Shown here: positions 2,876 to 37,403 of the stretch, one piece after another
Layout of the letters: each line of letters starts with the position of its first letter
Numbering within the stretch: position 1 is the first letter of the stretch
From: Escherichia coli
GTDB lineage: Bacteria > Pseudomonadota > Gammaproteobacteria > Enterobacterales > Enterobacteriaceae
Assembly: GCF_044647545.1 (NCBI RefSeq)
Contig: NZ_CP172818.1
Direction: 5' to 3' (one strand)
Length of the DNA stretch: 64,000 nt
The notes under the pieces: model-generated
What the model was told of the DNA's origin: nothing
The model's database searches: none
What the model saw: the letters and a program-made list of their open reading frames with translations, nothing else
Program-made: the position numbers and the translations under genes

Positions 2876-2899
2876 CCGGATGCGAGTTTTCGCATCCGG
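2876..2899. terminator. 9-bp stem hairpin (CCGGATGCG / CGCATCCGG) between convergent cysS and ybcI; possible bidirectional terminator or REP-like element
   Basis: Perfect inverted repeat seen in sequence; no strong T-run, so terminator role is tentative. Confidence 0.4.
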
Positions 2900-3421
2900 T
2901 TATCGCCTGCGCCACCACAACATTCCCATCAGTAGCATCCCCGGCAACCACACCCACATTAATTCAGAAATAATCACCTGATGCCCGTACGGCGTGGTGT
3001 AACGAGACAATGCAAACGGCGCGACTTTAATCACCTGCCAGGGAGCGAAAAAGCGTTCATCTGACCACGGCCACAGCCAGCCAACCCCTTTACCGCCAGT
3101 GGTTACCGAATCCAGCAAGCTGTGCGATAGCAACGAGACGGTTAAAAACAGCCAGCAGCGAATCAGCCCAGCCCTGAACCATCGACGTCCAATCAGCACA
3201 CATAACAGCGGGACAACAAACGCAAACACCAACGAATGGGTAAACCCGCGATGACCAAAAACATTGCCGTAAGCAACGCCAAATTTAAATGACAATACGT
3301 CGGCATCGGGCAGCATCGCCAGGACGATTCCGGCAAATAACAGGCGCGGAGGGATGACTTTTGAACCCAACCCTAAACCAATGCAAAGGGGAACGGCGGC
3401 GTGCGTAATAACGGTTGGCAT
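2900..3421 (-). CDS. ybcI: inner-membrane metal-dependent hydrolase family protein YbcI
   Basis: 173-aa hydrophobic ORF; recognised sequence and gene order. Confidence 0.8.
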   Translation of the reverse strand: MPTVITHAAVPLCIGLGLGSKVIPPRLLFAGIVLAMLPDADVLSFKFGVAYGNVFGHRGFTHSLVFAFVVPLLCVLIGRRWFRAGLIRCWLFLTVSLLSHSLLDSVTTGGKGVGWLWPWSDERFFAPWQVIKVAPFALSRYTTPYGHQVIISELMWVWLPGMLLMGMLWWRRR

Positions 3422-3489
3422 GATGATCGCTTCGGCAAAATATCGATGCTATCAGCATGGATGAACGAGGCGTAGGGGGCAACAGTCTG

Positions 3490-3520
3490 AAAAGAGAACC
3501 GGCCTGTTGATACAGGCCGG
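3490..3520 (-). terminator. rho-independent terminator downstream of ybcJ-folD (minus strand)
   Basis: 8-bp GC-rich stem (CCGGCCTG / CAGGCCGG) followed on the minus strand by TTCTCTTTT. Confidence 0.5.
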
Positions 3521-3528
3521 GAAAGGGA

Positions 3529-3741
3529 TCAGGCAACAACCTGTACGCTGTGACCTGCAAAACTTACTGTCTGCCCGGCGACAATTTTGCAGCGTTTGCG
3601 CGTTTCAACCGCACCGTCGACTTTCACCTGGCCTTCGGCAATCGCGATTTTCGCCTGCGCGCCGCTTTCGCTCCAGCCTTCCAGTTTCAGCAAGTCGCAC
3701 AGCTCAACGTGCGGATGTTTACCTAAAGAAAATGTCGCCAT
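3529..3741 (-). CDS. ybcJ: S4-like RNA-binding protein YbcJ
   Basis: 70-aa ORF starting MATFSLGKHPHVEL; the ORF track extends it 18 codons upstream into folD, which is unlikely to be real. Confidence 0.8.
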   Translation of the reverse strand: MATFSLGKHPHVELCDLLKLEGWSESGAQAKIAIAEGQVKVDGAVETRKRCKIVAGQTVSFAGHSVQVVA

Positions 3742-3742
3742 G

Positions 3743-4609
3743 TTACTCACCCTGTGGATCATGATATTCAACGCACGCCTGTAGCGTGTTTTCAATCAGC
3801 GTGGCAACCGTCATCGGGCCAACGCCGCCGGGAACAGGCGTAATGTATGAGGCGCGTTTAGCCGCGTCTTCAAACACGACGTCGCCCACAACTTTGCCAT
3901 TTTCCAGACGGTTGATGCCGACATCAATCACAATTGCGCCTTCTTTGATCCAGTCACCAGGAATAAAGCCCGGCTTGCCGACGGCAACGATCAGTAGATC
4001 GGCATTTTCTACGTGGTGACGCAGATTTTTAGTGAAACGGTGAGTCACGGTGGTGGTGCAACCTGCCAGTAGCAGTTCCATGCTCATCGGGCGGCCAACG
4101 ATATTCGATGCGCCAATCACCACGGCGTTGAGGCCGAAGGTATCAATATTGTAACGCTCAAGCAGCGTGACAATACCGCGCGGGGTGCAGGGACGCAGAC
4201 GCGGCGCGCGCTGGCACAGGCGACCGACGTTATAAGGATGGAAACCGTCTACGTCTTTGTCCGGATGAATACGTTCCAGCACTTTGACGTTATCAATACC
4301 CGCCGGTAACGGCAGTTGAACCAGAATGCCATCGATGGTGTTGTCGGCATTCAGCGCATCGATAAGCTCCAACAGCTCCGCTTCGCTGGTGGTTTCCGGG
4401 AGGTCATAAGAGCGGGAGACGAACCCGACTTCTTCACAAGCCTTGCGTTTGCTTGCGACATAAATTTGCGATGCAGGGTTACTACCCACCAGCACAACGG
4501 CCAGTCCTGGTGCCCGCAGTCCGGCTGCAATACGCGCCTGAACTTTTTGAGCAACTTCAGAGCGCACCTGCTGCGCAATCGTTTTACCGTCAATAATCTT
4601 TGCTGCCAT
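3743..4609 (-). CDS. folD: bifunctional methylenetetrahydrofolate dehydrogenase / methenyl-THF cyclohydrolase
   Basis: 288-aa ORF; recognised sequence. Confidence 0.94.
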
Positions 4610-5080
4610 CAGAGAGAGGATTCCATCTGTTACGTAGGTCGAAGGGGATGCGCCTATTTTGTCAGAAGCGGGGCGCGCTGTCAGGTTTCGTTTCAGATTT
4701 ATCGCGTGAAGCGACCTCTTGCGAAGGTGAGGCGCACCGTCGCTGAGATTGAAAGCTTCATTTTTCGTCCATGATGACGTTGTAAATCTGGAACTGATTT
4801 ATTTCCTTGTCTAAGGATTAAGATAATTTAAGAAATACCTGACAATATAAAAAGAATTTTCAGCCTGGTAATTTACCGCTTCAGGTCTATATTTGTGTTG
4901 AATATATTTTGCGCGGAAATATTCATCTAACGGGGCTCTCTATTTTTTAGAATAGAGTGCATATTTTCAATTAAGACATTCTTAGAGGATAAAAAGGAAT
5001 TTTACTACTATCAGTGTCTTAAATAAAGTAATCGGTTATATACGGATGTGGAGTCGATAAATGAGATTGAAGGAATATAT

Positions 5081-5623
5081 ATGAAATTAAGATTTATTTC
5101 GTCTGCGCTGGCCGCCGCACTATTCGCCGCTACGGGTAGTTATGCTGCCGTTGTAGATGGCGGTACAATTCACTTTGAAGGCGAACTGGTGAATGCTGCC
5201 TGTTCAGTGAATACTGACTCGGCAGACCAGGTTGTCACACTCGGTCAATATCGTACCGATATTTTCAATGCTGTTGGTAATACCTCTGCATTAATTCCAT
5301 TCACTATACAGTTGAACGACTGCGATCCTGTCGTTGCCGCTAATGCTGCCGTTGCATTTTCTGGTCAGGCGGATGCAATCAATGATAATTTATTGGCCAT
5401 TGCATCCAGTACTAATACAACAACAGCAACGGGTGTCGGTATTGAAATACTTGATAATACATCCGCAATTCTCAAACCTGATGGGAATAGCTTCTCAACC
5501 AACCAGAACTTGATCCCCGGGACCAACGTTCTTCATTTTTCTGCACGTTATAAAGGTACCGGTACAAGTGCATCAGCAGGGCAAGCAAATGCTGACGCGA
5601 CTTTTATTATGAGATACGAATAA
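5081..5623 (+). CDS. sfmA: type 1-like fimbrial major subunit SfmA
   Basis: 180 aa from MKLRFISS with signal peptide and fimbrial subunit C-terminus; ORF track begins 11 codons upstream. Confidence 0.85.
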
Positions 5624-21458: not shown

Positions 21459-22653
<1,195 letters not shown>

Positions 22654-23683
22654 TTAGTGAAGTCATTTTTGTCAAGCAGGTTGATTTTGTAATCAACGAA
22701 AGTAGACATATTTTTGTTGAAGTAATAGGTTGCACCTACATCAACATATTTGACTAAGTCCTGATCGCCCCATACTCCAAGATCCTTACCTTTAGATTGC
22801 AGGTAAGCAACGGACGGACGCAGACCGAAATCGAACTGATATTGTGCAACAGCTTCGAAGTTTTGGGCTTTATTAGCAACGAAGTGATCAGCAAATACAG
22901 TCATATTCTGGGTTTCAGAATAGGTAGTGGCCAGGTAAATGTTGTTAGCGTCATATTTCAGACCTGCGGCCCAAACTTCTGCATTTTTACCGGAAGCAAA
23001 TACTTCAGGAAGAACTTTCCCTGCATTAACTTGAGTGTCGGTACGATCAGATTTCGCATAAGTTGCACCGATACCGAATCCTTCGTATTCATAGGTAGCA
23101 GAGAAACCGAAGCCATCACCGTTACCTTCAGTGTAGTTATCGAAATCGCTACGATCGTTTTTGCCTTGGTACTGAATCGCAAAATCAAGACCATCAACCA
23201 GGCCAAGAAATCATAGTTACGGTAGGTTGCAACACCGTTGGTACGACCATTCATGAAGTTGTCAGCGGAAGCCCAGGAATCGCCACCCCATTCAACTAAC
23301 ATATCGGTATAAGCTGCGGCATCATAAGCAACACCGTAGTTACGGCCATAGTCAAATGACCACTCGTTATATTTCAAACCGGCGAAGGTTAAACGGGTTT
23401 TTTCCTGGTTTTCACCTTCGGGCTTGCTGGCGTCGAGGTTGTATTCAAACTGACCAAAACCAGTCAGTTCGCTGGTGATTTGGGTTTCACCTTTGAAGCC
23501 AAGACGGGCATAAGTAGTATCACCATCATCTGCATCATTAGAGGAGAAGTAGTGCTTAGCATTAACTTTCCCGTACAGATCCAGCTTGTTACTGTCTTTA
23601 TTATAAATTTCAGCTGCCTGAGCAGACATCGCCATTAGTACTGATGCAGCTACAGCAGAAATTGCCACTGTTAATTTTTTCAT
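22654..23683 (-). pseudogene. nmpC: OmpC-family outer-membrane porin, truncated at the 3' end by IS5 and carrying an internal single-base frame break near 23205
   Basis: Signal peptide [23 protein letters not shown]; porin sequence reads YRNYDF then shifts frame, then continues in frame to the IS5 junction (last residues EGANKSLI come from IS5). Confidence 0.8.
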
Positions 23684-24258
23684 CGTGAGCCCTTTTTTTG
23701 AACTATTATTAAAAAATGATGTCACTGCGCGATAAATATTCATCTAATCAATGTGATTATTTCAAGATGTAAGTTTTGGTTTCTCGTTTGATTTGTGAAG
23801 TAGATCTCTATTTTTATCTGAACTTTTTTCTATCGAATCCTATTCATGGCTCTTGGCTGAATAAAAATAAATCTATTAGCCAATTTATATTAACGGCTGT
23901 TATTTATAAGTGCTCTATAATTTGAAGGTTCAATTTAAACCGGCTAAAAATAACACTGGAAATTATTTTTTGGTTATTTGTTGAGATTTGCTTATGTATT
24001 TGTAGTGGTGTTTTCAATACTCGGTAGCATTCTCTCAAATATCATTTAGTGGTTTACGTACGTAAAAAATTGGTTATGCTGTTAAGAGTGGTTACTTCGT
24101 CACACAGCTTAAACCCGCCGTCGAGCGGGTTTTTCCATTTTTTGAGTCTCGATATTAGCTGATAACCCAATACCTGAGTTATTCACTGACTCCGAGTCTG
24201 TTACGTTTCGTAGTATTCCCTCAATTTACACCCATCCGTTATTTGCGGAGGTGAGGCT

Positions 24259-24474
24259 ATGAAATCCATGGATAAGTTAACAACGGGCATTGCCTACGGC
24301 ACCTCCGCAGGCAGTGCTGGCTACTGGTTTTTACAGCTGCTCGATAAAGTCACGCCCTCACAGTGGGCAGCAATAGGTGTGCTGGGTAGCTTGGTATTTG
24401 GCCTGCTGACGTACCTGACAAACCTTTATTTCAAGATTAAAGAAGATAAGCGCAAGGCTGCGAGAGGTGAATAA
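24259..24474 (+). CDS. essD: phage holin (71 aa)
   Basis: Two hydrophobic segments and charged C-terminus; first gene of the lysis cassette. Confidence 0.85.
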
Positions 24475-24971
24475 TGCCTCCATCATTACGAAAAGCCGTT
24501 GCTGCTGCTATTGGTGGCGGAGCAATTGCTATAGCATCAGTGTTAATCACTGGCCCAAGTGGTAACGATGGTCTGGAAGGTGTCAGCTACATACCATACA
24601 AAGATATCGTTGGCGTATGGACTGTATGTCACGGGCATACAGGAAAAGACATCATTCCCGGTAAAACGTATACCGAAGCAGAATGCAAAGCCCTCCTGAA
24701 TAAAGACCTTGCCACGGTAGCCAGACAAATTAACCCGTACATCAAAGTCGATATACCGGAAACAACGCGCGGCGCTCTTTACTCGTTCGTCTATAACGTG
24801 GGCGCAGGCAATTTCAGAACATCTACTCTTCTTCGCAAAATAAACCAGGGCGATATCAAGGGCGCATGTGACCAGCTACGTCGCTGGGCATACGCTGGCG
24901 GTAAGCAATGGAAAGGCCTGATGACTCGTCGTGAGATTGAGCGTGAGGTCTGTTTGTGGGGGCAACAATGA
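24474..24971 (+). CDS. rrrD: phage endolysin (lysozyme family)
   Basis: 165-aa ORF overlapping holin stop; N-terminal signal-anchor-like segment. Confidence 0.85.
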
Positions 24972-25342
24972 GCAGAGTCACCGCGATTATCTCCGCTCTG
25001 GTTATCTGCATCATCGTCTGCCTGTCATGGGCTGTTAATCATTACCGTGATAACGCCATCGCCTACAAAGAACAGCGCGATAAAAAAGTCAGTGAGCTGA
25101 AGCAGGCGACCGCCACCATTACTGACATGCAGCAGCGCCAGCGTGATGCTGATGCACTCGATGCTAAATACACGAAGGAGTTAGCTGATGCGAAAGCTGA
25201 AAATGATGCTCTTCGGCGCAAGCTTGATAATGGTGGTCGGGTGCTCGTCAAAGGAAAATGCCCTGTGCCATCCTCAGCCGAAACCTCCAGCGCCTCCGGC
25301 ATGGGCAATGATGCCACCGTCGAACTCAAAGACCGAGAATAA
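24968..25342 (+). CDS. rzpD: Rz-like inner-membrane spanin subunit (reading frame as it stands in this sequence)
   Basis: N-terminal transmembrane segment [21 protein letters not shown], coiled-coil-like region; frame terminates at 25342 while the following Rz-like C-terminal peptide lies in the +1 frame. Confidence 0.6.
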
Positions 25343-25709: not shown

Positions 25710-25874
25710 TTAAAGGATAAAGGTATTCAAGCCTGACACATCATGCGCTGTATCGTCGCCGTATTCCCGTATTAACAGAGACCGTAGCCCGACGGGGAAC
25801 TCCTTCTGCGCGAGTGTGCGGGAATAATCAAAAACGATGCACACCGGGGTTACCGGGTACACATATTTCATCAT
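25710..25874 (-). CDS. hypothetical small ORF (54 aa)
   Basis: ORF MMKYVYPVTPVCIVFDYSRTLAQKEFPVGL...; no recognisable family; below ORF-track cutoff. Confidence 0.2.
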   Translation of the reverse strand: MMKYVYPVTPVCIVFDYSRTLAQKEFPVGLRSLLIREYGDDTAHDVSGLNTFIL

Positions 25875-25919
25875 GCCAGCGAGTCCGGTTCTGGCACGGA
25901 AGAAACCGGACGTTATGAT

Positions 25920-26330
25920 TTAGTGCGGAAATATTTGTGTAGTGTTCTGAATGTTCTCAGTAAAGAGTAATGAATTATCAAAGGTATAGTAATACCTTTT
26001 GTTTTCGTGGATATTTGTAATCCATCTGAAAACCCCTGCTGTAGCAAGATTTTTCCTGTATTCGTAAAATGATAACTCTCCTGATTTGAATCCTTTTAAG
26101 GTGGCTTCTATAAGGCATTTATTTTTTGAAAATCTTACATTTACAACCTTACCCTGTCCTTTTATTAAAACCGTATTATCGTTTTCAAGAACAAGATGAA
26201 TATTCTCTGTAGCTAAATAGTAAATGTAATGTGAGACATTGTGACGTTTTAGTTCAGAATAAAACCAGTGATAGTTTAAATTATTTCGCACTTTATCGAA
26301 TATTTGTTTAAAAATGGCAACCTGAGCCAT
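25920..26330 (-). CDS. ybcV: prophage protein YbcV (DUF1398-like)
   Basis: 136 aa from [31 protein letters not shown]. Confidence 0.75.
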
Positions 26331-26662
26331 TGTGGTACCTTCCATGTGATATGAGGGGCGTAGTCTGCACGATTATCTAAATTGCTTCAATCTGGTCTGA
26401 TTTTTGAGAATTTAAATAAGCAGATTAGAAGGGAAACGCTGAAATTCATGTTGTTTTCAATAAACAAAGAATGGACGAAAAATCATAAAGACAATACTGC
26501 CAGGACAGGTTAAAAACTATCTTAATACACATTCGATGGTTAGATGTTTAATCATGTATAGAACATCATACCTAAAATACTAAAAGCAAAAGAAACGAAG
26601 GAATCCTCTATAATTAATCTATCAAAGAAGAGAATACGTATCTGACTAAGAGACTAATCAAC

Positions 26663-26896
26663 TCAGCAATCCTCGTATTTAGGGAATACAATACGTCCAG
26701 TGTCACTCTTTTCTTTGTTTGCTTCAGGAGAAACTCTTTTTTCTGAGCACAGTCTCCGGCGGCAGGCTTCAATGACCCAGGCTGAGAAATTCCCGGACCC
26801 TTTTTGATCAAGAGCGATGTTAATTTGTTCAATCATTTGGTTAGGAAAGCGGATGTTGCGGATTGTTGTTCTGCGGGTTCTGTTCTTCGTTGACAT
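26663..26896 (-). CDS. ylcI: small DNA-binding-like prophage protein (YlcI/DUF3950-like)
   Basis: 77-aa ORF MSTKNRTRRTTIRNIRFPNQMIEQINIALDQKGSGNFSAWVIEACRRRL; start codon uncertain. Confidence 0.5.
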   Translation of the reverse strand: MSTKNRTRRTTIRNIRFPNQMIEQINIALDQKGSGNFSAWVIEACRRRLCSEKRVSPEANKEKSDTGRIVFPKYEDC

Positions 26897-27095
26897 GAGG
26901 TTGTCCCGTATTTAGTGTCGCTGATTTGTATTGTCTGAAGTTGTTTTTACGTTAAGTTGATGCAGATCAATTAATATGATACCTGCGTCATAATTGATTA
27001 TTTGACGTGGTTTGATGGCGTAGATGCACGTTGTGACATGCAGATGATAATTATTATCATTTTGCGGGTCCTTTCCGGCGATCCGACAGGTTACG

Positions 27096-27107
27096 GGGCG
27101 GCGACCT
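27096..27107 (+). other. lambda-type cosN cohesive-end sequence GGGCGGCGACCT
   Basis: Exact lambda cohesive-end 12-mer preceded by GATCCGACAGGTTACG; CGTTTCC/GGAAACG repeats (terminase small-subunit binding elements) lie between it and nohD. Confidence 0.8.
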
Positions 27108-27284
27108 CGCGGGTTTTCGCTATTTATGAAAAATTTCCGGTTTAAGGCGTTTCCGTTCTTCTTCGTCATAACTTAATGTTTTTATTTAAAATACCCTCTG
27201 AAAAGAAAGGAAACGACAGGTGCTGAAAGCGAGCTTTTTGGCCTCTGTCGTTTCCTTTCTCTGTTTTTGTCCGTGGAATGAACA

Positions 27285-27830
27285 ATGGAAGTCAACAAAA
27301 AGCAGCTGGCTGACATTTTCGGTGCGAGTATCCGTACCATTCAGAACTGGCAGGAACAGGGAATGCCCGTTCTGCGAGGCGGTGGCAAGGGTAATGAGGT
27401 GCTTTATGACTCTGCCGCCGTCATAAAATGGTATGCCGAAAGGGATGCTGAAATTGAGAACGAAAAGCTGCGCCGGGAGGTTGAAGAACTGCGGCAGGCC
27501 AGCGAGGCAGATCTCCAGCCAGGAACTATTGAGTACGAACGCCATCGACTTACGCGTGCGCAGGCCGACGCACAGGAACTGAAGAATGCCAGAGACTCCG
27601 CTGAAGTGGTGGAAACCGCATTCTGTACTTTCGTGTTGTCGCGGATCGCAGGTGAAATTGCCAGTATTCTCGACGGGCTCCCCCTGTCGGTGCAGCGGCG
27701 TTTTCCGGAACTGGAAAACCGACATGTTGATTTCCTGAAACGGGATATTATCAAAGCCATGAACAAAGCAGCCGCGCTGGATGAACTGATACCGGGGTTG
27801 CTGAGTGAATATATCGAACAGTCAGGTTAA
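27285..27830 (+). CDS. nohD: terminase small subunit (lambda Nu1 homologue)
   Basis: 181-aa [49 protein letters not shown]...; recognised Nu1 sequence. Confidence 0.9.
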
Positions 27831-28548
27831 CAGGCTGCGGCATTTTGTCCGCGCCGGGCTTCGCTCACTGTTCAGGCCGGAGCCACAGACCGCCGTTGAA
27901 TGGGCGGATGCTAATTACTATCTCCCGAAAGAATCCGCATACCAGGAAGGGCGCTGGGAAACACTGCCCTTTCAGCGGGCCATCATGAATGCGATGGGCA
28001 GCGACTACATCCGTGAGGTGAATGTGGTGAAGTCTGCCCGTGTCGGTTATTCCAAAATGCTGCTGGGTGTTTATGCCTACTTTATAGAGCATAAGCAGCG
28101 CAACACCCTTATTCCAGCTGGCTTCGTGGCTGTTTTCAACAGTGATGAGTCATCGTGGCATCTCGTTGAAGATCATCGGGGTAAAACGGTTTATGACGTA
28201 GCGTCAGGGGACGCGTTATTTATTTCTGAACTCGGTCCGTTACCGGAAAATGTTACCTGGTTATCGCCGGAAGGGGAGTTTCAGAAGTGGAACGGTACAG
28301 CCTGGGTGAAAGATGCAGAAGCAGAAAAACTGTTCCGGATTCGGGAGGCGGAAGAAACAAAAAACAGCCTGATGCAGGTAGCCAGTGAGCATATTGCGCC
28401 ACTTCAGGATGCTGTAGATCTGGAAATCGCAACGGAGGAAGAAACCTCATTGCTGGAAGCCTGGAAAAAATATCGGGTGTTGCTGAACCGTGTTGATACA
28501 TCAACTGCACCTGATATTGAGTGGCCTACGAACCCTGTCAGGGAGTAA
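27805..28548 (+). pseudogene. tfaD: fusion of terminase large-subunit N-terminal fragment to a tail-fibre assembly C-terminal fragment
   Basis: N-terminal ~100 aa match lambda gpA start ([28 protein letters not shown]...), C-terminal part matches Tfa (...[28 protein letters not shown]...). Confidence 0.75.
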
Positions 28549-28602
28549 TCATTGGGATTATGCCGCAGCACGTCTTAAGCAAGAACATGCTGCGGTTGGA
28601 TG

Positions 28603-29187
28603 CTATTTTTTTCCTGAAGCGGAAAACATTACTACAGTACCTTGAACCTTGGTTTTAACATTCTCGAAATGCTCTGAGAGTATATGTGTTAAGCCTTCTT
28701 CGGAATCTTTTGTGTTTGAAAAGATGCCTTTCTGATTGTAAATGCGCATCAGTTTTTGACCGAAGCTATTGTGCACAACTCCATCGCCAAGAATTGTGGC
28801 TCCGTATAGAGTTCCATCGTCAGTTAAGGCCTGCGCCGCATTGCGTATTACACAGCTTTTTGTAGATATATTTCCAGGCAGGCAGTGAAGAAGGTAAGAC
28901 ATGGAAATGGAATCAAATTGACCATGTAACGCCGCGGGATAAGGTTCAAAAACATCATGGCTAATTTTATGTTTAATTTTTGATTCCCCAGCCCTTGTAG
29001 ATGCCGCGTTCAGGCTAGCTTCGTTCAAATCCATTAAAGATATCAGACTACTCTCAGGTACGTGAGTAAGGTAAAACCCAGTTCCAACACCAATATCCAG
29101 ATGGTTGTTACCTAAATGTTCCAGAAAGTGTGGAAGAAGGTGTTCCTTTGTAGGACATCCCCATGCAAGCCGATTTGATACTCCCAA
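28603..29187 (-). CDS. ybcY: SAM-dependent methyltransferase-like protein
   Basis: 194-aa ORF with glycine-rich nucleotide-binding motif (LDIGVGTG); may be a truncated gene. Confidence 0.6.
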   Translation of the reverse strand: MGVSNRLAWGCPTKEHLLPHFLEHLGNNHLDIGVGTGFYLTHVPESSLISLMDLNEASLNAASTRAGESKIKHKISHDVFEPYPAALHGQFDSISMSYLLHCLPGNISTKSCVIRNAAQALTDDGTLYGATILGDGVVHNSFGQKLMRIYNQKGIFSNTKDSEEGLTHILSEHFENVKTKVQGTVVMFSASGKK

Positions 29188-29325
29188 AACCCACCAGTCA
29201 TAAAGCTTTAGGGTAAGTGGTGTGTAAATTCTAGCCCCATCATCTGTGTTTTTTTATTAATTTCACCATGTTATAGTTTTATTTGTGAATTAAATCAATT
29301 ATGGCAATGAATTACAAGGGGTTAA

Positions 29326-29586
29326 ATGCTGCCGCAGCATAGCGATATTGAAATAGCCTGGTATGCTTCAATACAGCAGGAGCCGAATGGCTGGAAGACC
29401 GTCACCACACAGTTCTACATCCAGGAATTCAGTGAGTATATTGCGCCACTGCAGGATGCTGTAGATCTGGAAATCGCAACGGAGGAAGAAAACTCGTTGC
29501 TGGAAGCCTGGAAAAAGTATCGGGTGCTGCTAAACCGTGTGGACACTTCCGTAGCACCAGATATCGAGTGGCTTATTCAACCATAA
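29326..29586 (+). pseudogene. tfaX: tail-fibre assembly protein C-terminal fragment
   Basis: 86-aa ORF whose C-terminal 50 aa closely match the C-terminus of the tfaD fusion. Confidence 0.6.
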
Positions 29587-30131
29587 TAAACAGTATGTAT
29601 ATCATAGGTTATTAATTGTGAGTTTTTTCGGTGTGTTATTTGTTTGTTTGATGTTATGCTTTTGCGCCCCAAAAGGTTGTTTAGATGTATTTTATCAATT
29701 GATTTTCAATGTCGTTTAATAAAGAAAAATTAAGCAAGCTGGATGTTGGTTTTTTGTTAATTGAATGGTTCTAATAATGTTTTTTTACTGTTGTTGAATG
29801 TGACTTGATAAGAAATGCAAGTAAAAATGATACTCTTTTTATTTTAAATTCAAACGGTTGACATATATATAGCAAGAGGTTTCAGGTGCGTTGTAGTGAG
29901 TTTATGTTAATAAAAAGTATAGTAAGCGTTGAAAAATGTAACTTTGAAATACGTTAGAATAAAAAACAATATACATATAATAATTTAATCTTAAATGAAA
30001 TTTATTAAAATTTGCAAACTATAATTTTGTGTATAAAAATATAAATGCACATCATCCTGATTATGATTGTGTATTTAATTGGTTGTTATTTGACTGCTAT
30101 CAACTTGTTTTAATTTTATGATAGGTGCAAG

Positions 30132-30881
30132 ATGGATTATGTTTGCTCCGTAGTTTTCATCTGTCAATCATTTGATTTAATTATAAACAGGAGAGTTATC
30201 TCGTTCAAAAAAAATTCATTGTTTATTGTAAGCGACAAAATTAGAAGGGAGTTACCAGTATGCCCCTCTAAACTAAGAATTGTTGATATAGATAAGAAAA
30301 CATGTTTATCCTTTTTTATCGACGTGAATAATGAGCTGCCTGGCAAATTTACTCTTGATAAGAATGGCTATATTGCTGAAGAGGAACCTCCATTATCGCT
30401 TGTTTTTTCTCTGTTTGAAGGGATTAAAATAGCAGACTCACACTCCCTTTGGTTAAAAGAAAGACTATGTATATCCTTACTTGCCATGTTCAAAAAACGC
30501 GAAAGTGTAAATTCATTTATACTAACAAATATAAATACATTTACCTGTAAAATTACTGGAATAATCAGTTTTAATATTGAGCGGCAATGGCATTTAAAAG
30601 ATATTGCGGAATTGATTTATACGAGTGAAAGTTTAATAAAAAAAAGATTAAGGGATGAAGGAACGTCATTTACTGAAATATTGAGAGATACTAGGATGAG
30701 GTATGCAAAAAAACTCATAACTTCAAACTCTTATTCTATCAATGTCGTAGCCCAGAAATGTGGCTATAACAGTACTTCATATTTCATATGTGCATTTAAA
30801 GATTATTATGGTGTCACGCCATCTCATTATTTTGAGAAAATAATCGGCGTCACAGATGGAATAAACAAAACAATTGACTGA
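30132..30881 (+). CDS. appY: AraC-family transcriptional activator AppY
   Basis: 249-aa ORF with C-terminal AraC helix-turn-helix; AT-rich flanks. Confidence 0.9.
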
Positions 30882-31129
30882 TAATGTTTATTACAAGTTG
30901 CCTACATGTTAATTATAATATTATACAGCGTTTTTTTGATGTGATATTCTGGAACCATTAATTTGTAATTGGGTTGCTGTCGCCTATTTTATACATGCTA
31001 TAATTGATGGTTTTCTATGTGATTTAGTTAATAACCTTCTGGGTTTATTTTAAGGGTTAATTGTTACATTGAAATGGCTAGTTATTCCCCGGGGCGATTG
31101 TCACCTCGGGGAAATTTTAGTTGGCGTTC

Positions 31130-32083
31130 TTAAAATGTGTACTTAAGACCAGCAGTAGTGATGAAGTTATAGTTTTCTATGCCTGCACCATTTTTGCTGT
31201 AGTCTGAAGTGTTATCATTGTGATCATAAAGTGAAGTATTACCTTTTTTATTCGTAACCCGATTCCATGCGCCTTCAACATAAACTTTTGCGTTAGGTGT
31301 TACGTAATAACCTGCATTGACTGCAACAGAATAGTAATTTTGGTCTTTGACTTTACTGCGATAAGTGATTCTTTTTCCTGGGTCATAGTGCTCATCGTTA
31401 TCAGATGCTTCCACCCAGCCGCTGTATTTAAATGTGCCACCTAGCTCAAAATCTTCATAACGATAACTTCCAGTCAAGCCAATGTAGGGCATTTTAAAAC
31501 GTTGTTTGTAGCCGATTGCTCTTTCTCCATTCGGGAAGGAGCCGATATCATCTCTGAATCCCTCCTCAGAACTGTAGATATAGGAACCACCTCTGGCTGT
31601 AAAGCTATAACGGCTTTCCTGATATCCGGCCATGAGTCCCAGGCGGTAATTGGGTTCGTTGAGGAGCCAGCCTTTGATATTCAGATCAAATTCGTTGGCA
31701 TAATTGAGTTGTGTATCAGGGTGCCTACTTTCATCTGTCCAGGTTCCGGGGTTACTGGAATCCATCCAGTCCTGATCGACCATATTGCCACCTCGGCTGC
31801 CGAGAGTAGTCCAGCCCGCAGCCCCAATAGATATCTGGGGCATCAAATCCCAATTAATTGCACCTTTAATAATTGCAGCGTTATTGAATTTCCAGTCGAG
31901 TTGACTGACTTTTCGGCCTCCTTCTTCGGCTAGATAAACACGCTCTTTTGTTTTTCCGCTCAGAGTTCCAAGACTAATGTCCGCATTTATGTTGTCAGGA
32001 GTAAACGATAAAGTCTCGGTAGAAGCAAAAGAGCTGATCGCAATAGGGGTTGTCAGGACTATTCCCAGAAGTTTCGCCCGCAT
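31130..32083 (-). CDS. ompT: outer-membrane aspartyl protease OmpT (omptin)
   Basis: 317-aa ORF; recognised omptin sequence. Confidence 0.93.
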   Translation of the reverse strand: MRAKLLGIVLTTPIAISSFASTETLSFTPDNINADISLGTLSGKTKERVYLAEEGGRKVSQLDWKFNNAAIIKGAINWDLMPQISIGAAGWTTLGSRGGNMVDQDWMDSSNPGTWTDESRHPDTQLNYANEFDLNIKGWLLNEPNYRLGLMAGYQESRYSFTARGGSYIYSSEEGFRDDIGSFPNGERAIGYKQRFKMPYIGLTGSYRYEDFELGGTFKYSGWVEASDNDEHYDPGKRITYRSKVKDQNYYSVAVNAGYYVTPNAKVYVEGAWNRVTNKKGNTSLYDHNDNTSDYSKNGAGIENYNFITTAGLKYTF

Positions 32084-32506
32084 AAAAGTTCTCCATTCAA
32101 TCGTTTTAATGATTGAATATGTATTTTTTATATCTAACTTAATGAGTCAATTACATATTGCTCCACTGTTTATATTTTGTTTAGTATTGAATGATTATCA
32201 CAATGCGCTATCTGTTTTTGGTTTAATTATCTGTTATTGTTTCATATTGCGGTTTTACTGTGTGGTTTTTTTATGCTTTTGTGGTGCTTTTATCTATTTA
32301 AGTGCCATGCCTTTAGAGGCATATAAGCGAAAATAGCATGAGGTTTATCCTCAATTACTATGTTTTTTAGTACAAAAAAGAGGGACAAAACTGAGACACA
32401 TAAGGCCTCACAATGGCTTGCAAGGCTTTACATGTTTTGAGGTAGTGGGACGTGTGAGCGCAGAGATGGCGCGGTAAGTTGTTGACTTAAAATGTCGTTC
32501 TAGGAA

Positions 32507-32551
32507 CTTCTAAGTCGTGGGCCGCAGGTTCGAATCCTGCAGGGCGCGCCA
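32507..32551 (+). repeat. 45-bp direct repeat of the argU 3' end marking the prophage right attachment site
   Basis: Identical to 11630..11674 (CTTCTAAGTCGTGGGCCGCAGGTTCGAATCCTGCAGGGCGCGCCA). Confidence 0.9.
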
Positions 32552-32595
32552 TTTCTTCTTCATTTAATCCCGTCTTATCCGTTCCGCTTTGCTCT

Positions 32596-33357
32596 TCACC
32601 ACATCACTTTTTGTCGCTGTTTGGCGAGATAATTCAACGGTGTCAGGCCGTAAAACGCCTTAAAAACAGAGATAAAGTACGACGTGCTGCTATAGCCACA
32701 TAATTGCGCCACCTGAGTGATATTTTTGTTATCCATCAATAACATCTGTACGGCGTAACGCATACGACACTCTGTGACAATCTGGCTATAGCTGGTATTT
32801 TCGTTTTTTAATTTCTTTTTGAGCAGGCTGGGGCTTAAACATAGCGAACTGGCGACAATTCGCAGATTCCAGTAATGCTGAATATCGCTTTGAATAATGC
32901 GGCAGACGCTGTCGCGGACGCTGCTGCGTAAGATATACATCAGTAGGGCAATAAACCGCGATTGCTCAAGAAAGTTAGACAATACGGTAAAAAGCAATGC
33001 GCGCGTCAACTCCGCTTCGCAGGGTTTGCTGGGTTGCTGCTTGCTGTGGTTGGCGGCTAGCCGGAACACTTCCGGTGTACGGCTATGACAAGCGATAACC
33101 GGGGTTGCCAGCCGCGACCAGGGCTTTATACAGGTTAAGTTCTTATTTAAAAACAACAGATAATCGTTGATGATGTTACGGTTGATGTGGGTGATTAATA
33201 CGTGATTTAACGTTGAGAGTTCAATGACGTTATTGTTGCACGCGAAGGCGGCCAGGTAGTTTTTCGGAAGGGTAAACGTAGCATGGTTATTGACGCTTAC
33301 CTCTACCTCTTTTTCGGTCAGGATCACCACGCAAGGTTCACTGCTGCTCAATTGCAT
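32596..33357 (-). CDS. envY: AraC-family porin thermoregulator EnvY
   Basis: 253-aa ORF with C-terminal AraC helix-turn-helix. Confidence 0.88.
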   Translation of the reverse strand: MQLSSSEPCVVILTEKEVEVSVNNHATFTLPKNYLAAFACNNNVIELSTLNHVLITHINRNIINDYLLFLNKNLTCIKPWSRLATPVIACHSRTPEVFRLAANHSKQQPSKPCEAELTRALLFTVLSNFLEQSRFIALLMYILRSSVRDSVCRIIQSDIQHYWNLRIVASSLCLSPSLLKKKLKNENTSYSQIVTECRMRYAVQMLLMDNKNITQVAQLCGYSSTSYFISVFKAFYGLTPLNYLAKQRQKVMW

Positions 33358-33539
33358 TTCGCACTCCTCAGATATCAGAAACTCCGCTCAAAGGATCTAT
33401 GCTTCCTGCATGAGTGATCGGCCCGTTCGCCGATAACGATCTTCTTTCTTTAGCACGCTTTTTAGCAATTAATCTTGATGGAATTCTGACGAGAGCGAAA
33501 GAGGTAAGCCAGGTCGTACCCGACTTACCTGGAGGAGAT

Positions 33540-34430
33540 TTAATACTCGAGAATGCCGTGCGCGACGGGCAAATAGCGCAGAGAGAAATAGAGCGTGTCT
33601 TTACCGCAAGAGGAACGTTTCGCTAACAGCGAGGCAATTTCTGCGTCCGGTTTCGGTTTCGCTGTAAAGGTTTTGCCTTTGCCGGCGACAAACAGTTCAT
33701 AAACAATGCCGCTTGCTGGGGCGGAGCTTTGGCAATCGGCGCTGGCCTGTAGATAACGTTCACGCTGTTCAGCGGTCAGTTTATCCACGCCGCTGCCATC
33801 CTGTACCCAGACATTAACGCCGGTTGCTTTAACGTGTTCCAGCAGTTGGCGATAGCCATCGGGCGACATGTTTCCGGCGAAAAAACTACTGATATAAACC
33901 GGTTTTGCTGAAACATCGCTAATCAACCGCTGCGCGTTGTTTAACCATGTTAGCAAAGGCTGACGGGCGGCTTCGCTGCGCCAGTTCAGGTCGTCAATTT
34001 CCGCGCTGATGTACCAGCCATCCGGCGTTACGCCAGGTACGGCGCTCCATAATCTGGCTTGCTGGAGATCGGCAGCCAGCAGGCGGTTAAGATAGCTTTC
34101 CAGCGCTGCAGACGACTGTTTCTGGTGCATAAAAAATTCCGGATCGGCATTCAGCCCGACAATCAGCTTCAGGCCAGCCTGTTGCGCAGCTGCGGCACGC
34201 TTAAACAATAACGCGTGCTGTTCTGGCTGGGTGAATGCATCGCCGTAACGAGTCCATTGCAAAACCAGGGTATCGAAGCCTTGCAAACGTAACTGACTCA
34301 TCAGCCCCTGCCACTGGGTATCGGTAACCTGACTATCACGGTTTTGTGGTTGCCAGATAATACCTTTCATCGCAAAGGAAAAAGGGCTGACCAAAAGCAG
34401 TGTCAGCAATACGAAAATGAACTTACGCAT
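33540..34430 (-). CDS. ybcH: secreted DUF4434-family protein YbcH
   Basis: 296-aa ORF with signal peptide; abuts nfrA stop. Confidence 0.8.
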   Translation of the reverse strand: MRKFIFVLLTLLLVSPFSFAMKGIIWQPQNRDSQVTDTQWQGLMSQLRLQGFDTLVLQWTRYGDAFTQPEQHALLFKRAAAAQQAGLKLIVGLNADPEFFMHQKQSSAALESYLNRLLAADLQQARLWSAVPGVTPDGWYISAEIDDLNWRSEAARQPLLTWLNNAQRLISDVSAKPVYISSFFAGNMSPDGYRQLLEHVKATGVNVWVQDGSGVDKLTAEQRERYLQASADCQSSAPASGIVYELFVAGKGKTFTAKPKPDAEIASLLAKRSSCGKDTLYFSLRYLPVAHGILEY

Positions 34431-37403
34431 TTACCAGTGCACTCCAATGGTGAGAAACGCATTGTTGCGCTCTCCGTTACGTTGATTAATCGCCTTAAAG
34501 GTATGTTGATACTCGACGCCGAGACTGACTTTGTGCGGCCAGGCGTCGTAGTGCGTCTCGCCGGTCCAGATATTCCAGCGGACCCCGACACCGCCAAGCT
34601 GCGCGCCCTGAGTGCCTTTATCACGATAGCCGTTGTCCTGAACGTGAGCGTAAGGCTCAATAGTCTGTCCGTTAGCTACCTTCTGATGCCAGCTGACGCG
34701 ATAATCTGCCGTCCACGCCTGAATATCCTGGCGGATATATTGCGCTGCATCGAGGTACAGGTTTTGGGCAAACCAGCCTGAACCGTTCGGGTGCCATTCG
34801 TCGCTGTATTTGCCGCCATTAAAGAATGAGGCGCTGGCGCGCAGCATGGTATCGGATGCGCCATTTTGCCCGTTCAGCGGCAACTGCTGTTCGACGGCGA
34901 GGAAAAAGATCTGATCGCGCAGCGGCTTCCAGCGCAGACCGGTGCCGGACATCGGATTTTTCACCGGCATCATCACCCCGTTTTCTCCAGTATCGGCAAA
35001 TACACGGCTGTAAACCGAGAGCAGGTCGCCTTCCAGCAGCATATTGCGTCCGATGCGATACTCGGCTTCCAGTTGCCCGTAGCTACGATAGCTTTTCCCT
35101 GGCGCTGCGCCGCCGACATTATTGTTAGCGGTACTTATTGCGCCGGAACGCAAGCCGATAGAAGAATCGAAACTGAACGTCCAGCGGCGACCGACCTCCT
35201 CATGCAGACGGCGGAAATTGAAGCGTTGCTGATTTTGCTCTGGGGTCAGTGGGGTTATCAGCGCCTGATTATCAATGTCATCAATCACCAGCCGGGCGTA
35301 GTGCTGCGTCGCAGGCATGTCATCCAGACGCTGGTTCACGTAGGCCAGTTGTCGGATAAGTGCCGGATCGTCCGGTAGCCCTTTATGCGCCTGTTCGAGC
35401 ATTTCCCGCGACTGTGCGATATCACCGCTATCCCACAAGGCGTAACCGAGCGCTGCCTGGGTGTTGCTATTATTCGGTTCCAGTTCCAGCGCGGCGCGCA
35501 AATCACTCACCGCCGCCGGGACATTATGACGTTGGCGATAAATTGTCGCCCGCGCAACGTAAGCGTTGGCAGAAGGCGCAATATTGATTGAGCGCGTGAG
35601 ATCGTTCAGTGCGAGTTCCGGCTGACCAGGAATGTAACGTTGCGCATGCAGCCACCAGTAGAGGGCATTGTTTCCCAGCCCACGTTGTTCTGCCTGCTGA
35701 AGCCAGCGATCGCGAGCCGCACCATTTCCTGCCGCCTGGGCGGTATTGGCAGCAGCAAGCAGATCCTCATTGCTCATGTCGTGAAGACTGATTTTCTGCC
35801 AGGCCGCCAGTGCGGTGGCGTAGTCCTCAACCTGATACGCCTGATAGGCTACCGCACGATGTTGCCAGGCGTTCGGTTGTCGTTGTTCGGCCTGAAGCCA
35901 TGCATACAACGCCACACCGGGTAGCGTGTCCCGATAACACTTTGCCAGACGGTTCCAGGCGGCGGCATCGTAGGAAGGCGACATATCGCCCAGCAAGCGA
36001 ACTATTGCCGGGCAATTATCTGCAATACCCGGCAACTGACTTTGCCACTGACGTTGCTCCGCCAGCGGTAAAGGTTTCGATAAAATCGCCACCTTCGCCG
36101 GCGTTGCCAGGTAAGGATGACTTTCCAGCAGAGACGCCAGTCGCGCCATTAACGTCTGGCTGACACGCGCATCGCCCTGGAAAGGATAGCGTTGCAGCAA
36201 TAAATCGGCAGCTTCGCGTGACTGCTCGTTCTGCATCAGTTGCCAGGTCAGTTGATCCAGGCGGGTAAGATTTGCCGGTTCTTGCTGATACAGCAATCGT
36301 GCCAGACGCAGAGCTTCAGCCTTGTTATGGGTCGCTACGCTAACGGTATAACGCTCCTCAAGCATTTCATTGGCGGGGAGGGTGGCGAGCAGTTTTTGCG
36401 CTGCGTCGTACTGACCTTCTTTTAACAGCACCGGTAGCGTCGCGCCAACAACATACTGGCGGTTATCGGCAAACTGTACCGTATAATTCGCCAACGCCTG
36501 AACGGGGTTGACGCTGTATTTAGATAACAGATAGAGCCAACTTTTCTCTTGTGCGTCCGTGGTAAACAGCGGCTTATTTTCAATGAGATAATGCTGGAGG
36601 CGCGCTTTTTCGCCACGATAAGCCAGCGCGGTCGCGTAAGTAATATATGACTGAGGATCGGTGAAGATCCCCTGTGATTGCAGCGCCAGGATCCGATCAT
36701 CCAGCTGCGCGGCAAGAAGCACGTCAAACCACTGACGGCGTTCTGCCGCGCTTAATGTGTTCTGCTGGCGTGCTTCATTATATAGCGTATCTGCCTGGGA
36801 CCATTGTTTCAGGTAGATTGCGCGTTGCAGCAGATCGGTTCGCAACGTTTTTCCTTCCGGCGATGCAGCAAACGTCGCATCGTTTAGTTGCGCTCTGGCG
36901 ACAGGTAATTGTGCCAGCCGCAGGGCATTCTGCCCGACTTCACTGCGACAACGCAGGGTCGGCGCAGCGTCGCACGCTTTTTGCTGGGCAAGCAGTTCTT
37001 CAACAGTCGTAACGCTTTTCACTTCAACTGGAATAGCCGCCAGACTGCGCTCAAGTCGGGCATCTCCTGGGTGACGTTTCAGTTGATCCTCAAGCAACAG
37101 CCGCGCCCGGTCATCATGACCAAAATGGCGATAGGCTTCCGCAAGGTATAAAGTCAGCGGAATATTATCCGGCACCTGCTGGTGTATATATTCAAATTCG
37201 CGGATGGCGGTTGCTTCGTCGTTATTTTTCTGTGCCTTCAGCGCCTTGTCGAGACGGGGATAAATAACGAAATGGCGATAATCGCTCAGCCCCAGCTCTT
37301 CTGCGCTGGTGCCGATATTGTCTGCGAGTGCGCTGGTACTCAATAAAGACGTCAGCAGTAAACCAGACCATCCGATGACGCGATTAAGGTTATTCTCCTT
37401 CAT
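34431..37403 (-). CDS. nfrA: phage N4 adsorption protein A (TPR-repeat outer-membrane protein)
   Basis: 990 aa from MKENNLNRVIGWSGLLLTSLLSTSALA; overlaps nfrB stop. Confidence 0.9.
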   Translation of the reverse strand: MKENNLNRVIGWSGLLLTSLLSTSALADNIGTSAEELGLSDYRHFVIYPRLDKALKAQKNNDEATAIREFEYIHQQVPDNIPLTLYLAEAYRHFGHDDRARLLLEDQLKRHPGDARLERSLAAIPVEVKSVTTVEELLAQQKACDAAPTLRCRSEVGQNALRLAQLPVARAQLNDATFAASPEGKTLRTDLLQRAIYLKQWSQADTLYNEARQQNTLSAAERRQWFDVLLAAQLDDRILALQSQGIFTDPQSYITYATALAYRGEKARLQHYLIENKPLFTTDAQEKSWLYLLSKYSVNPVQALANYTVQFADNRQYVVGATLPVLLKEGQYDAAQKLLATLPANEMLEERYTVSVATHNKAEALRLARLLYQQEPANLTRLDQLTWQLMQNEQSREAADLLLQRYPFQGDARVSQTLMARLASLLESHPYLATPAKVAILSKPLPLAEQRQWQSQLPGIADNCPAIVRLLGDMSPSYDAAAWNRLAKCYRDTLPGVALYAWLQAEQRQPNAWQHRAVAYQAYQVEDYATALAAWQKISLHDMSNEDLLAAANTAQAAGNGAARDRWLQQAEQRGLGNNALYWWLHAQRYIPGQPELALNDLTRSINIAPSANAYVARATIYRQRHNVPAAVSDLRAALELEPNNSNTQAALGYALWDSGDIAQSREMLEQAHKGLPDDPALIRQLAYVNQRLDDMPATQHYARLVIDDIDNQALITPLTPEQNQQRFNFRRLHEEVGRRWTFSFDSSIGLRSGAISTANNNVGGAAPGKSYRSYGQLEAEYRIGRNMLLEGDLLSVYSRVFADTGENGVMMPVKNPMSGTGLRWKPLRDQIFFLAVEQQLPLNGQNGASDTMLRASASFFNGGKYSDEWHPNGSGWFAQNLYLDAAQYIRQDIQAWTADYRVSWHQKVANGQTIEPYAHVQDNGYRDKGTQGAQLGGVGVRWNIWTGETHYDAWPHKVSLGVEYQHTFKAINQRNGERNNAFLTIGVHW

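Follow-up and report, generated by a model that had tools for sequence, protein, structure and literature searches.

The window, by which we mean the whole 64-kb stretch of Escherichia coli DNA that was analyzed, holds a K-12-like remnant of the DLP12 prophage. Its gene order and chromosomal neighbors are those of K-12 (essD ... nohD, tfaD, ybcY, tfaX, appY, ompT, envY, ybcH, nfrA), and positions 26734 to 35696 are collinear with K-12 ER1709 at 98.7-100% DNA identity. The right end of the prophage (nohD, aaaD'::'tfaD, ybcY', tfaX', appY, ompT and envY) carries the same gene fusion and the same 2-bp deletion in ybcY as K-12, and positions 27750-29491 are identical to it. However, the window is not K-12, as its flanks are 83-98.7% identical, and a stop codon lies in K-12 at the position of 29511, whereas tfaX of the window is an open ORF of 86 aa. 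RefSeq annotates the K-12 equivalent as a terminase fragment, a tail fiber assembly fragment, a frameshifted methyltransferase, a second tail fiber assembly fragment and appY; tfaD (ybcX), ybcY and tfaX are annotated pseudogenes in K-12 DLP12. The feature discussed here is already known: K-12 is the best-studied bacterial genome, and a 2004 publication reported that its two tfa fragments are homologous to the final third of lambda tfa and able to recombine.

Genes at the right end of DLP12

A lambda-type cos region, read from the sequence around 27086-27260, lies 5' of nohD (27285-27830, plus strand), a lambda Nu1-like small terminase subunit gene according to the ORF list and the RefSeq annotation of the K-12 equivalent. 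It is followed on the same strand by aaaD' (27805-28109), an N-terminal piece of about 100 codons of a lambda A-like large terminase gene, in frame with tfa. Pfam GpA_ATPase matches residues 47-102 of the aaaD'::'tfaD fusion ORF, and RefSeq labels the K-12 equivalent of aaaD' 'terminase large subunit, missing C-terminus'. The tfa part, 'tfaD (28110-28548, plus strand), is without its first ~49 codons. By tblastn it corresponds to lambda Tfa residues 50-194 at 92% aa identity, the Pfam profile Caudo_TAP (PF02413) matches it at 4.8e-45 over profile positions 1-130, and homology to intact tfa genes begins at 28110 in all relatives. Intact relatives carry stf and then a 194-aa tfa; neither tfaD nor tfaX is a complete Tfa with a fiber-binding N-terminal domain, a C-terminal domain and a cognate stf adjoining. 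Downstream, at 28563-28595, stands the tfa 3' hairpin (CCGCAGCA-17 nt-TGCTGCGG, then a T-run), which is also present after lambda tfa and at which a simple terminator scan gave no call. The region around the left repeat copy, described below, is about 90% identical in DNA to phage lambda tfa (orf-194), through the hairpin to about 28597. In lambda, by contrast, a single complete tfa is followed by the b region, with neither ybcY nor a second tfa piece.

On the minus strand, ybcY (28603-29269) is a class I SAM-dependent methyltransferase gene (PHROG 2132) by the ORF list, RefSeq, Pfam and PHROG. In Pfam it matches class I SAM-methyltransferase families, among them Methyltransf_12 (3e-9). Sequence searches of NCBIfam, PADLOC and PDB returned generic class I methyltransferase similarity only (UbiG and juvenile-hormone acid methyltransferase, E about 1e-3), with no defense-system match of note in PADLOC and the other searches. 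Relative to intact 222-aa alleles, the gene has a 2-bp deletion near 29256, by which it is inactivated in the window. Upstream, on the minus strand at 29325-29298, a sigma-70-like promoter match (TTAACC-16-CATAAT with TG) abuts the tfaX start codon; it is a consensus match only, at 9 of 12 positions, no more than expected by chance. The GC content of ybcY is 40.9% and that of the first part of tfaX 41.0%, compared with 50.8% for tfaD and 49.7% for the tfa-derived part of tfaX. The last gene, tfaX (ORF 29326-29586, plus strand), runs into the AT-rich DNA of the appY-ompT-envY island (29576-30131, 25% GC), delimited by GC and by alignment of the right repeat copy.

The repeated tfa 3' ends and the chimeric tfaX

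The sequence-only reading had proposed that the 3' ends of tfaD and tfaX repeat each other in the same orientation and bracket a reverse-oriented methyltransferase gene, and both statements agree with the results. A repeat search reported, as its sole long direct repeat family, 28372-28528 and 29419-29575, which are 157 nt long, 87% identical and ungapped, at an offset of 1047 nt, with ybcY between them. The intervals first given for the repeat, 28392-28540 and 29436-29580, denote the same feature but are shifted by about 10-20 nt. The nucleotide identity of the two segments is significant (pairwise blastn, 86.6% over 157 nt without gaps, E=3.4e-52), and the best 100-nt window holds 94 matches, whereas none of 30 shuffles exceeded 47. 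Identity sets in abruptly at 28383/29430 (CAGTGAG) and decays after 28524/29571, giving cores of 28383-28524 and 29430-29571. The offset is a multiple of 3 and the tfa frame is read in both copies, both on the plus strand. Tfa proteins combine a variable N-domain with a conserved C-terminal helical domain (PMC9608196); both copies encode this conserved C-terminal module, the right one as the 3' portion of tfaX, which comes from tfa. Over 47 core codons the copies differ by 11 synonymous and 3 non-synonymous changes, and this mostly synonymous divergence of 13% would have accumulated under coding constraint. Homologues of the tfa 3' end occur in 5,284 of 5,426 E. coli genomes, at a median of 4 places per genome.

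The two copies end very different genes. The left copy is the end of the aaaD'::'tfaD deletion fusion, and tfaX is a chimeric ORF rather than a truncated tfa. Its first 35 codons (X', 29326-29430, plus strand, 41% GC) come not from tfa but from a PHROG-3893-type small phage gene, of which they are the N-terminal part, and match by BLASTP (E=3e-12) the full-length 79-aa member of Klebsiella phage Kp4882-3. Only the last ~55 residues of Tfa follow, with a Caudo_TAP match of 2.1e-23 confined to profile positions 75-130; tblastn with lambda Tfa and Mu U agrees with the placing of both pieces in this family. All carriers have the X'::'tfa joint in common. At E<=10, Pfam gave no match to the peptide of either strand over these 35 codons. 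A 'DinI family' annotation by PGAP on their minus strand in relative L002 was ruled out on this Pfam result and on the plus-strand PHROG 3893 homology. Weak tblastn matches adjoining dinI in Eeyore, mEp390, HK225 and HK140 (E 0.5-2) were given no weight. A longer ancestor of tfaX was also rejected, as every long form among 820 homologues is a read-through or frameshift variant. The right copies of L002 and L008 are complete, with the stop codon and hairpin of tfa still in place, while alignment shows the last codons and hairpin replaced by appY-side DNA in the window, L003 and L006.

Could the chimeric ORF be kept as a functional gene, so that selection on a useful right copy preserves the repeat? 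Such a product of the tfaX type (PHROG 2341, 86-89 aa) might be a candidate mini-chaperone or decoy with the Tfa oligomerization module only. In the window, as in many genomes, the ORF is open, and its clusters count 200-500 members; its counterparts in a P2-like prophage and a tailspike phage are 77-84% identical in aa sequence, and it is always the traveling companion of ybcY. We nonetheless regard selection on it as quite unlikely. Between contexts, the N-terminal 35 codons show 5 non-synonymous and 3 synonymous differences, and many independent variants are frameshifted, truncated or stop-bearing, including those of K-12, F467, 2G7b, PhiR68_2 and GZ04-0086. The commonest forms have their 3' end swapped for unrelated DNA, and conservation around the start codon, which abuts the promoter-like site of ybcY, may be regulatory.

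Proposed inversion and deletion at the repeat

The layout had also been read, tentatively, as the fossil of a formerly invertible segment, and this did not hold. In its full form, the proposal makes the tfa pieces the U and U' of a fossil host-range segment of the Mu G, P1 C or e14 P kind, once turned by a Din-family invertase. Duplicated tfa segments are indeed a hallmark of such switches in the annotation of Mu, and phage PhiR68_2 has a PinQ/PinR-type serine recombinase between its tfa and the ybcY cassette. The likeness to Mu G, P1 C and e14 P stops at duplicated tfa-family sequences adjoining tail-fiber genes. Those systems have convergent tfa genes, alternative stf ends, 26-bp inverted sites and an adjacent serine invertase, all of which are absent here. 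U and U' always converge, but the copies here point the same way, and what precedes the right copy is part of an unrelated small gene instead of an alternative stf end. In the 64-kb window, tblastn with Mu Gin and PhiR68_2 Pin found no Din-family invertase at E<=1e-3, and neither stf homology nor any further or inverted tfa was found, both tfa pieces being on the plus strand. A scan for gix/hix-like sites with at most 4 mismatches in 18 specified positions found none in the window or in L002, L003, L004, L006, L008 and L013; its positive control recovered both gix sites of Mu at 2 mismatches, and its consensus is validated only on Mu. Intact relatives show the same direct tfa layout as the window, with no long inverted repeats, only short pairs of 20-30 nt at 74-81% identity, such as chance would give. 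One such short pair, between stf and the start of tfaX, was treated as chance. The array has one orientation at every locus examined, in collinear assemblies. A fossil switch is thus very improbable, and the tfa-ybcY-tfa' arrangement is an ordinary, previously documented trace of gene shuffling among phages rather than the relic of a switch that inverts DNA. More generally, 'duplicated tfa' counts as evidence for an inversion switch only where an invertase, crossover sites and an inverted orientation of the copies come with it.

The expectation that recombination between the direct copies would delete ybcY fared better. The predicted hybrid tfa, without ybcY, is found at the same chromosomal site in nine complete E. 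coli genomes. These alleles are full-length, switch once from the left-copy type to the right-copy type and then pass straight into the appY side. The switch falls in three distinct intervals, 28404-28445, 28485-28494 and 28497-28500. Taking out the 2.65 kb between the repeats of phage PhiR68_2 gives the hybrid of L014, and the flanks of the two are 99.2-99.6% identical. In the experiments of Poteete et al. (2004, PMC545071), lambda tfa DNA underwent recombination with each of the DLP12 copies. The pair corresponds to loci I and II for recombination in that study, where Red-mediated recombinants arose at both, 7 of type I and 2 of type II among 12, and the published primers map beside each repeat copy. 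The pair is therefore a real recombination substrate, for loss of ybcY and capture of lambdoid DNA, and is relevant to recombineering and to prophage assembly and typing.

The same polymorphism can be read in the opposite direction, with the ybcY-less tfa as the ancestral empty state, the array formed by insertion and the repeat as the product of that insertion. The DNA 3' of complete right copies fits this reading, being the native downstream of tfa, as expected from insertion by crossovers within tfa. L008 shows the hairpin followed by dinI, as L021 does, and the window shows the appY side, as L013-15 do. The distribution of the alleles speaks against it, since the array occupies the DLP12 site in at least 454 genomes and the hybrids, with three different single-switch points, in nine. 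In addition, L014 would need a composite pin-ynaE-ybcY block to have been inserted in one step, and homologous exchange within the repeat is required in either direction. An ancestral empty state is rather unlikely. Deletion is the more likely direction of the polymorphism, given the three breakpoints and the ratio of 9 to at least 454 at the site.

Probable origin and spread of the ybcY cassette

The copies are just 1 kb apart and in the same orientation, as a recent in-situ duplication of the tfaD 3' end in this prophage, followed by neutral decay, would leave them. That origin is hardly credible. The array and its joint recur at different integration sites and in phages with unrelated backbones, the divergence of 13% is mostly synonymous, and right copies cluster with the right copies of other genomes and not with their own left copy.

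The best explanation overall, which we consider probable, is that the segments are the 3' thirds of two distinct tfa alleles, brought together by a spreading ybcY cargo cassette, with no recent local duplication. As the C-terminal module is conserved among Tfa chaperones, nearly any two lambda-type tfa genes would be alike over about 150 nt, at 85-95% identity. The left copy would be the end of a tfa that formerly served the side tail fibers of the DLP12-type phage and was later decapitated by a deletion running from terminase gene A into tfa. The right copy would be half of a recombination joint, 35 PHROG 3893 codons on the last ~55 tfa codons, probably made once, by illegitimate recombination. 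Chimeric ORF, divergently oriented ybcY and tfa hairpin would together make up a cargo ('moron') cassette, about 1 kb long and with a GC content of 41%. From the identity gradients, rather than from any observed event, we infer that it spread behind the tail-fiber genes of many phages by homologous recombination, with tfa homology as the arm. The present pair would have no role for the cell or the prophage, other than as a 157-nt substrate for RecA or Red recombination, through which the cassette can be deleted or the repeat can recombine with incoming lambdoid tfa DNA; each of these outcomes is seen, in natural variants and in the published experiments.

In fact, the tfa-ybcY-tfa' array is neither confined to this strain nor local to this prophage, but is part of a widespread cargo cassette. 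The ybcY cassette is present in about 3,400 of 5,426 complete E. coli genomes (about 60%); a figure of 3,790 strict junctions between left copy and ybcY was set aside, as it is confounded by joined right-copy matches. Apart from the DLP12 site, the array is carried by intact prophages at other sites, by the viable lambdoid phages PhiR26_1, 2G7b and PhiR68_2, by a tailspike phage and, at smpB, by P2-like prophages. Across these contexts ybcY is 98.8-99.3% identical, compared with 89-97% for the 5' part of tfa, 92-99% for the left copy and 79-87% for the right copy. A cargo gene conserved at 99% between recombining tfa flanks illustrates the known mosaicism of phages, with no new mechanism, and the importance of the pair beyond housekeeping is little. 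The left end of the minimal cassette is the hairpin at 28563-28595. In PhiR68_2 and L018/L019 the cassette begins there, at 28563, and has no left tfa copy, which indicates that left tfa homology is not always involved.

Lambdoid morons, in the concept of Hendrix and Juhala, are additional cargo genes with transcription of their own, lom and bor for example, that sit between conserved phage genes. The ybcY cassette resembles them in several respects. It is present or absent between conserved neighbors, being missing from lambda and from the empty hybrid alleles L013-15 and about 99% identical across backbones. Its base composition is distinct, 41% GC against about 50% in the neighbors (51% in the comparison with morons). 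Additionally, ybcY lies at the end of the late operon, a region in which cargo tends to collect. A promoter-like match, no more than chance would give, and a hairpin that the terminator scan did not call flank ybcY as putative signals for its own transcription. It differs from such morons in carrying a piece of its neighbor, a tfa tail on a foreign gene start. Because of this tail, insertion behind a tfa would create a direct repeat and provide a built-in homology arm. One may go further and suppose that the tail, ~150-230 nt of the most conserved part of tfa, acts as a portable homology arm by which ybcY is recombined in and out behind lambda-type tfa genes. We hold this extension to be unlikely; if true, it would make ybcY a cargo gene mobile by general recombination alone. 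In a weaker variant, the 86-89-aa chimeric ORF (PHROG 2341) could be a functional mini-Tfa. Within the collection of papers searched, there was no match on methyltransferase cargo at tfa or in morons, or on exchangeable effector loci. The same layout recurs with another cargo, which stands between a tfa and a tfa stub followed by dinI, and for which there is also an empty allele with tfa next to dinI.

Tail-fibre assembly alleles on either side of ybcY

The segments bracketing ybcY form a direct, ungapped repeat of 157 nt (28372-28528 against 29419-29575), which is 87% identical at an offset of 1047 nt and represents the only long direct family found by a repeat search of 27000-31000. In a base-by-base comparison at this offset, identity has a sharp onset at 28383/29430 and fades past 28524/29571. 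Pairwise blastn of left against right copy gave E=3.4e-52, and the best 100-nt window of the two copies holds 94 matches, where shuffled sequence reaches at most 47. The sequence-only reading had described repeated 3' ends of the tail-fibre assembly chaperone gene (tfa) around ybcY; these are real and significantly alike at the nucleotide level, although the segments had been placed 10-20 nt off. The repeat is also already known, since the array (tfa-ybcY-tfa') has been annotated and was described in 2004 (PMC545071).

The left copy is the 3' end of the aaaD'::'tfaD fusion, and the right copy is the 3' part of tfaX. The Caudo_TAP profile matches the tfaD part at 4.8e-45 and tfaX at 2.1e-23, the latter over profile positions 75-130 only, and both copies are aligned by lambda Tfa and Mu U, on the plus strand only (tblastn). 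Both copies have the same reading frame, and their 47 core codons contain 11 synonymous and 3 non-synonymous differences; therefore, the copies diverged while protein-coding. They are two tfa alleles, and a recent duplicate left to decay was rejected on the shared frame and these codon differences. Chaperones of the Tfa type contain a variable fibre-binding N-domain and a conserved C-terminal helical domain (PMC9608196). The repeat is this conserved C-terminal module, which is why matches to it occur in 5,284 of the 5,426 complete E. coli genomes, with four such places in the median genome. The feature is thus this module in two allelic forms of tfa, of which the right-hand one is fixed in a chimeric ORF that accompanies the cargo gene ybcY. 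A 45-aa ORF at 28521-28658, labelled 'nucleocapsid protein' or 'hypothetical protein' by RefSeq, overlaps the tfa stop, a hairpin and the ybcY end, and looks like a spurious call.

The cassette and its chimeric ORF

Lambda homology stops at about 28597, just past the hairpin (28563-28595), and the ybcY stop codon lies at 28603. In phage PhiR68_2 and a tailspike phage (L018/L019), the shared sequence starts exactly at the hairpin, at 28563; therefore, the minimal unit comprises the hairpin, the reverse-oriented ybcY, a spacer of 52 nt containing a promoter-like match, and the tfaX ORF. The gene ybcY (28603-29269) encodes a generic class I SAM methyltransferase (PHROG 2132) of 222 aa if intact, whose relatives are uninformative; it weakly resembles UbiG and juvenile-hormone acid O-methyltransferases. 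Roughly 60% of complete E. coli genomes carry the gene, whose DNA sequence is 99% conserved even between phages with unrelated backbones. Phage Ayreon (2746-3096 of its locus) contains a decayed cassette, with a tfa stub, the hairpin, the last ~36 nt of ybcY, the ybcY upstream region and a PHROG-3893-derived start; the ybcY remnant is joined directly to the upstream region, which equals a deletion of 28639-29295 in the window.

The first 35 codons of tfaX have no Pfam match, match PHROG 3893, and have a GC content of 41%, as ybcY does, against 50% for tfa; by composition and homology, tfaX is therefore a chimeric ORF with a PHROG-3893-type start and a tfa tail. A full-length, 79-aa member of PHROG 3893 from Klebsiella phage Kp4882-3, where a UmuD-like gene lies downstream of it, is 53% identical to tfaX residues 2-37 (E=3e-12). 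The right copy begins at a joint made by illegitimate recombination (X'::'tfa), and as this joint is the same in every carrier examined, we infer that it formed once. A decayed prophage on a Logan contig (SRR31708164, 2729-3040) bears a lambda gpI'::'tfa fusion whose tfa part starts within a few nucleotides of that in tfaX (…A|SEHIAPLQ), which may be a coincidence or a preferred breakpoint. In the tailspike phage (7243-7440), a 40-aa remnant of the N-terminal domain of the side tail fibre (Stf), 45% identical to E. coli Stf, lies 39 nt past the tfaX-type ORF, an unexpected order of tfa tail and then stf head.

An open chimeric ORF is found in many genomes, also in distant contexts, as would be expected of a functional mini-Tfa. 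However, such a role is improbable, given that the PHROG-3893-derived part shows 5 non-synonymous versus 3 synonymous codon changes between contexts, that copies disrupted independently by frameshifts, truncations or stop codons are common, and that the 3' end is often replaced.

Prophage setting, distribution and probable exchange

The window holds the right end of a cryptic lambdoid prophage of the K-12 DLP12 type, in the order nohD, a terminase-A fragment fused in frame to tfa (first ~49 tfa codons absent), ybcY on the opposite strand, tfaX, appY, ompT and envY. Upstream of nohD lies a lambda-type cos region (GGGCGGCGACCTCGCGGGTTTTCGC…) at 27086-27260, with an inverted repeat of 25 nt at 27204-27260; the cos patch upstream of nohD is the chief lambda-DLP12 recombination site (Poteete et al., PMC545071). 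The prophage is nevertheless not that of K-12 itself: the interval 27750-29491 is identical to K-12 and its flanks differ, identity to K-12 ER1709 being 98.7% over 26734-35696, 94% over 22217-25212 and 83% over 25744-26400; none of the complete E. coli genomes matches 27800-29700 above 99.8%. A 2-bp deletion in ybcY near 29256 is common to the window and K-12. The array differs from K-12 only at 29492, 29493 and 29511, all within the right copy. At 29493 and 29511 the window has the left-copy bases, and the G at 29511 abolishes the internal stop codon of K-12, leaving tfaX open over 86 codons. These left-type bases could represent a small gene-conversion patch or mere strain variation.

The array is widespread and older than the decay of the window's prophage. 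A query of ybcY plus tfaX was covered to at least 80% in 3,419 of 5,426 E. coli genomes. Strain F467 has J-lom-stf-tfa(194 aa)-ybcY-tfaX-appY-ompT at the same chromosomal site as the window, and GZ04-0086 has J-lom-stf-tfa-ybcY(intact)-tfa' at the trp/ompW site. The array also occurs in the viable phages PhiR26_1, PhiR29/30, 2G7b, ev243, Kati, Turner and PhiR68_2, and in P2-like prophages at smpB, behind fibre and tfa genes; the tailspike phage, from a host other than E. coli, carries the cassette without the left tfa copy. Complete right copies, in two related loci (L002, L008), are equivalent to 28372-28602, reaching past the tfa stop codon to include the hairpin, which is also found 3' of lambda tfa. 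In the window, the end of the right copy is overwritten at 29576 by DNA of the appY island. This intergenic region upstream of appY, 29576-30131, is extremely AT-rich (25% GC), adjoins the truncated right copy and marks the border of prophage DNA with the appY-ompT-envY island.

Compared with the P2-like context, the window varies in identity along the array: 98.8% for ybcY, 92% for both the PHROG-3893-derived part and the left copy, 89% for the tfa 5' part and 79% for the right copy. Among right copies, the tails fall into the allelic types also seen in full-length tfa genes (PTNPVRE, PAVPVME, PALP, LIQP), and L008 has a block of private variants common to both copies. In a prfC-site prophage of E. 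coli Res13-Lact-ER01-35 (4519-5400), a complete tfa is followed by another AT-rich cargo of ~660 bp, which contains an ORF of 65 aa, and then by a decayed 3' stub of tfa with hairpin and by dinI, while a further locus (L021) is the empty allele, tfa-hairpin-dinI. This pattern is the usual lambdoid mosaicism, in which a rare illegitimate joint would form first and may then spread and be edited through homologous exchange.

Suggested inversion and probable deletion between the copies

The layout had been suggested to be a fossil of a formerly invertible segment. In Mu, S/U and S'/U' are convergent and bounded by inverted gix sites, followed by gin; unlike in Mu, the two tfa pieces of the window share one strand. 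No Gin/Pin homologue, stf or further tfa was found in the 64-kb window (tblastn). A scan for the crossover-site consensus picked up both Mu gix sites, at 2 mismatches, but no site in the window or in any of six related loci with as many as 4 mismatches allowed. Intact stf-tfa relatives again have the direct layout and lack long inverted repeats, which speaks against inversion. In PhiR68_2, tfa and the ybcY cassette are indeed separated by ynaE and a serine recombinase of the PinQ/PinR type (3354-4527), the cassette lying beyond the recombinase in its usual orientation; the 9 kb examined contain no gix-like site or alternative fibre segment. The invertible-segment relic is therefore rejected.

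The companion suggestion, that recombination between the repeats would delete ybcY, fared better. A predicted deletion product (tfa 5' part, crossover in the repeat, tfaX tail, appY side), searched in complete E. coli genomes, gave a single uninterrupted match in nine genomes at 95.8-98.3% identity. All nine hybrids lie at the same site, with J-lom-stf-tfa running straight into appY-ompT-envY-ybcH-nfrA. When diagnostic sites were followed in comparison with array-bearing relatives, every hybrid proved to switch once from left to right type, within 28404-28445, 28485-28494 or 28497-28500. One allele (L014) equals PhiR68_2 without the 2.65 kb of its pin-ynaE-ybcY block, and the flanks of the two match at 99.6% and 99.2% identity. 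Formally, the hybrids might be ancestral empty sites, but three breakpoints, and nine hybrids versus at least 454 arrays at the site, favour repeated deletion as their probable origin. The repeat pair is a recombination substrate, according to these natural variants and published experiments. Poteete et al. (2004, PMC545071) reported that MG1655 matches the final 200 bp of lambda tfa at four places, two of them within DLP12 (ybcX and a linked unnamed pseudogene), and obtained Red-mediated recombinants at both DLP12 matches (7 type I and 2 type II, n=12). Their primers map at 27895-27914 and 29229-29248, each a short way upstream of one of the copies.
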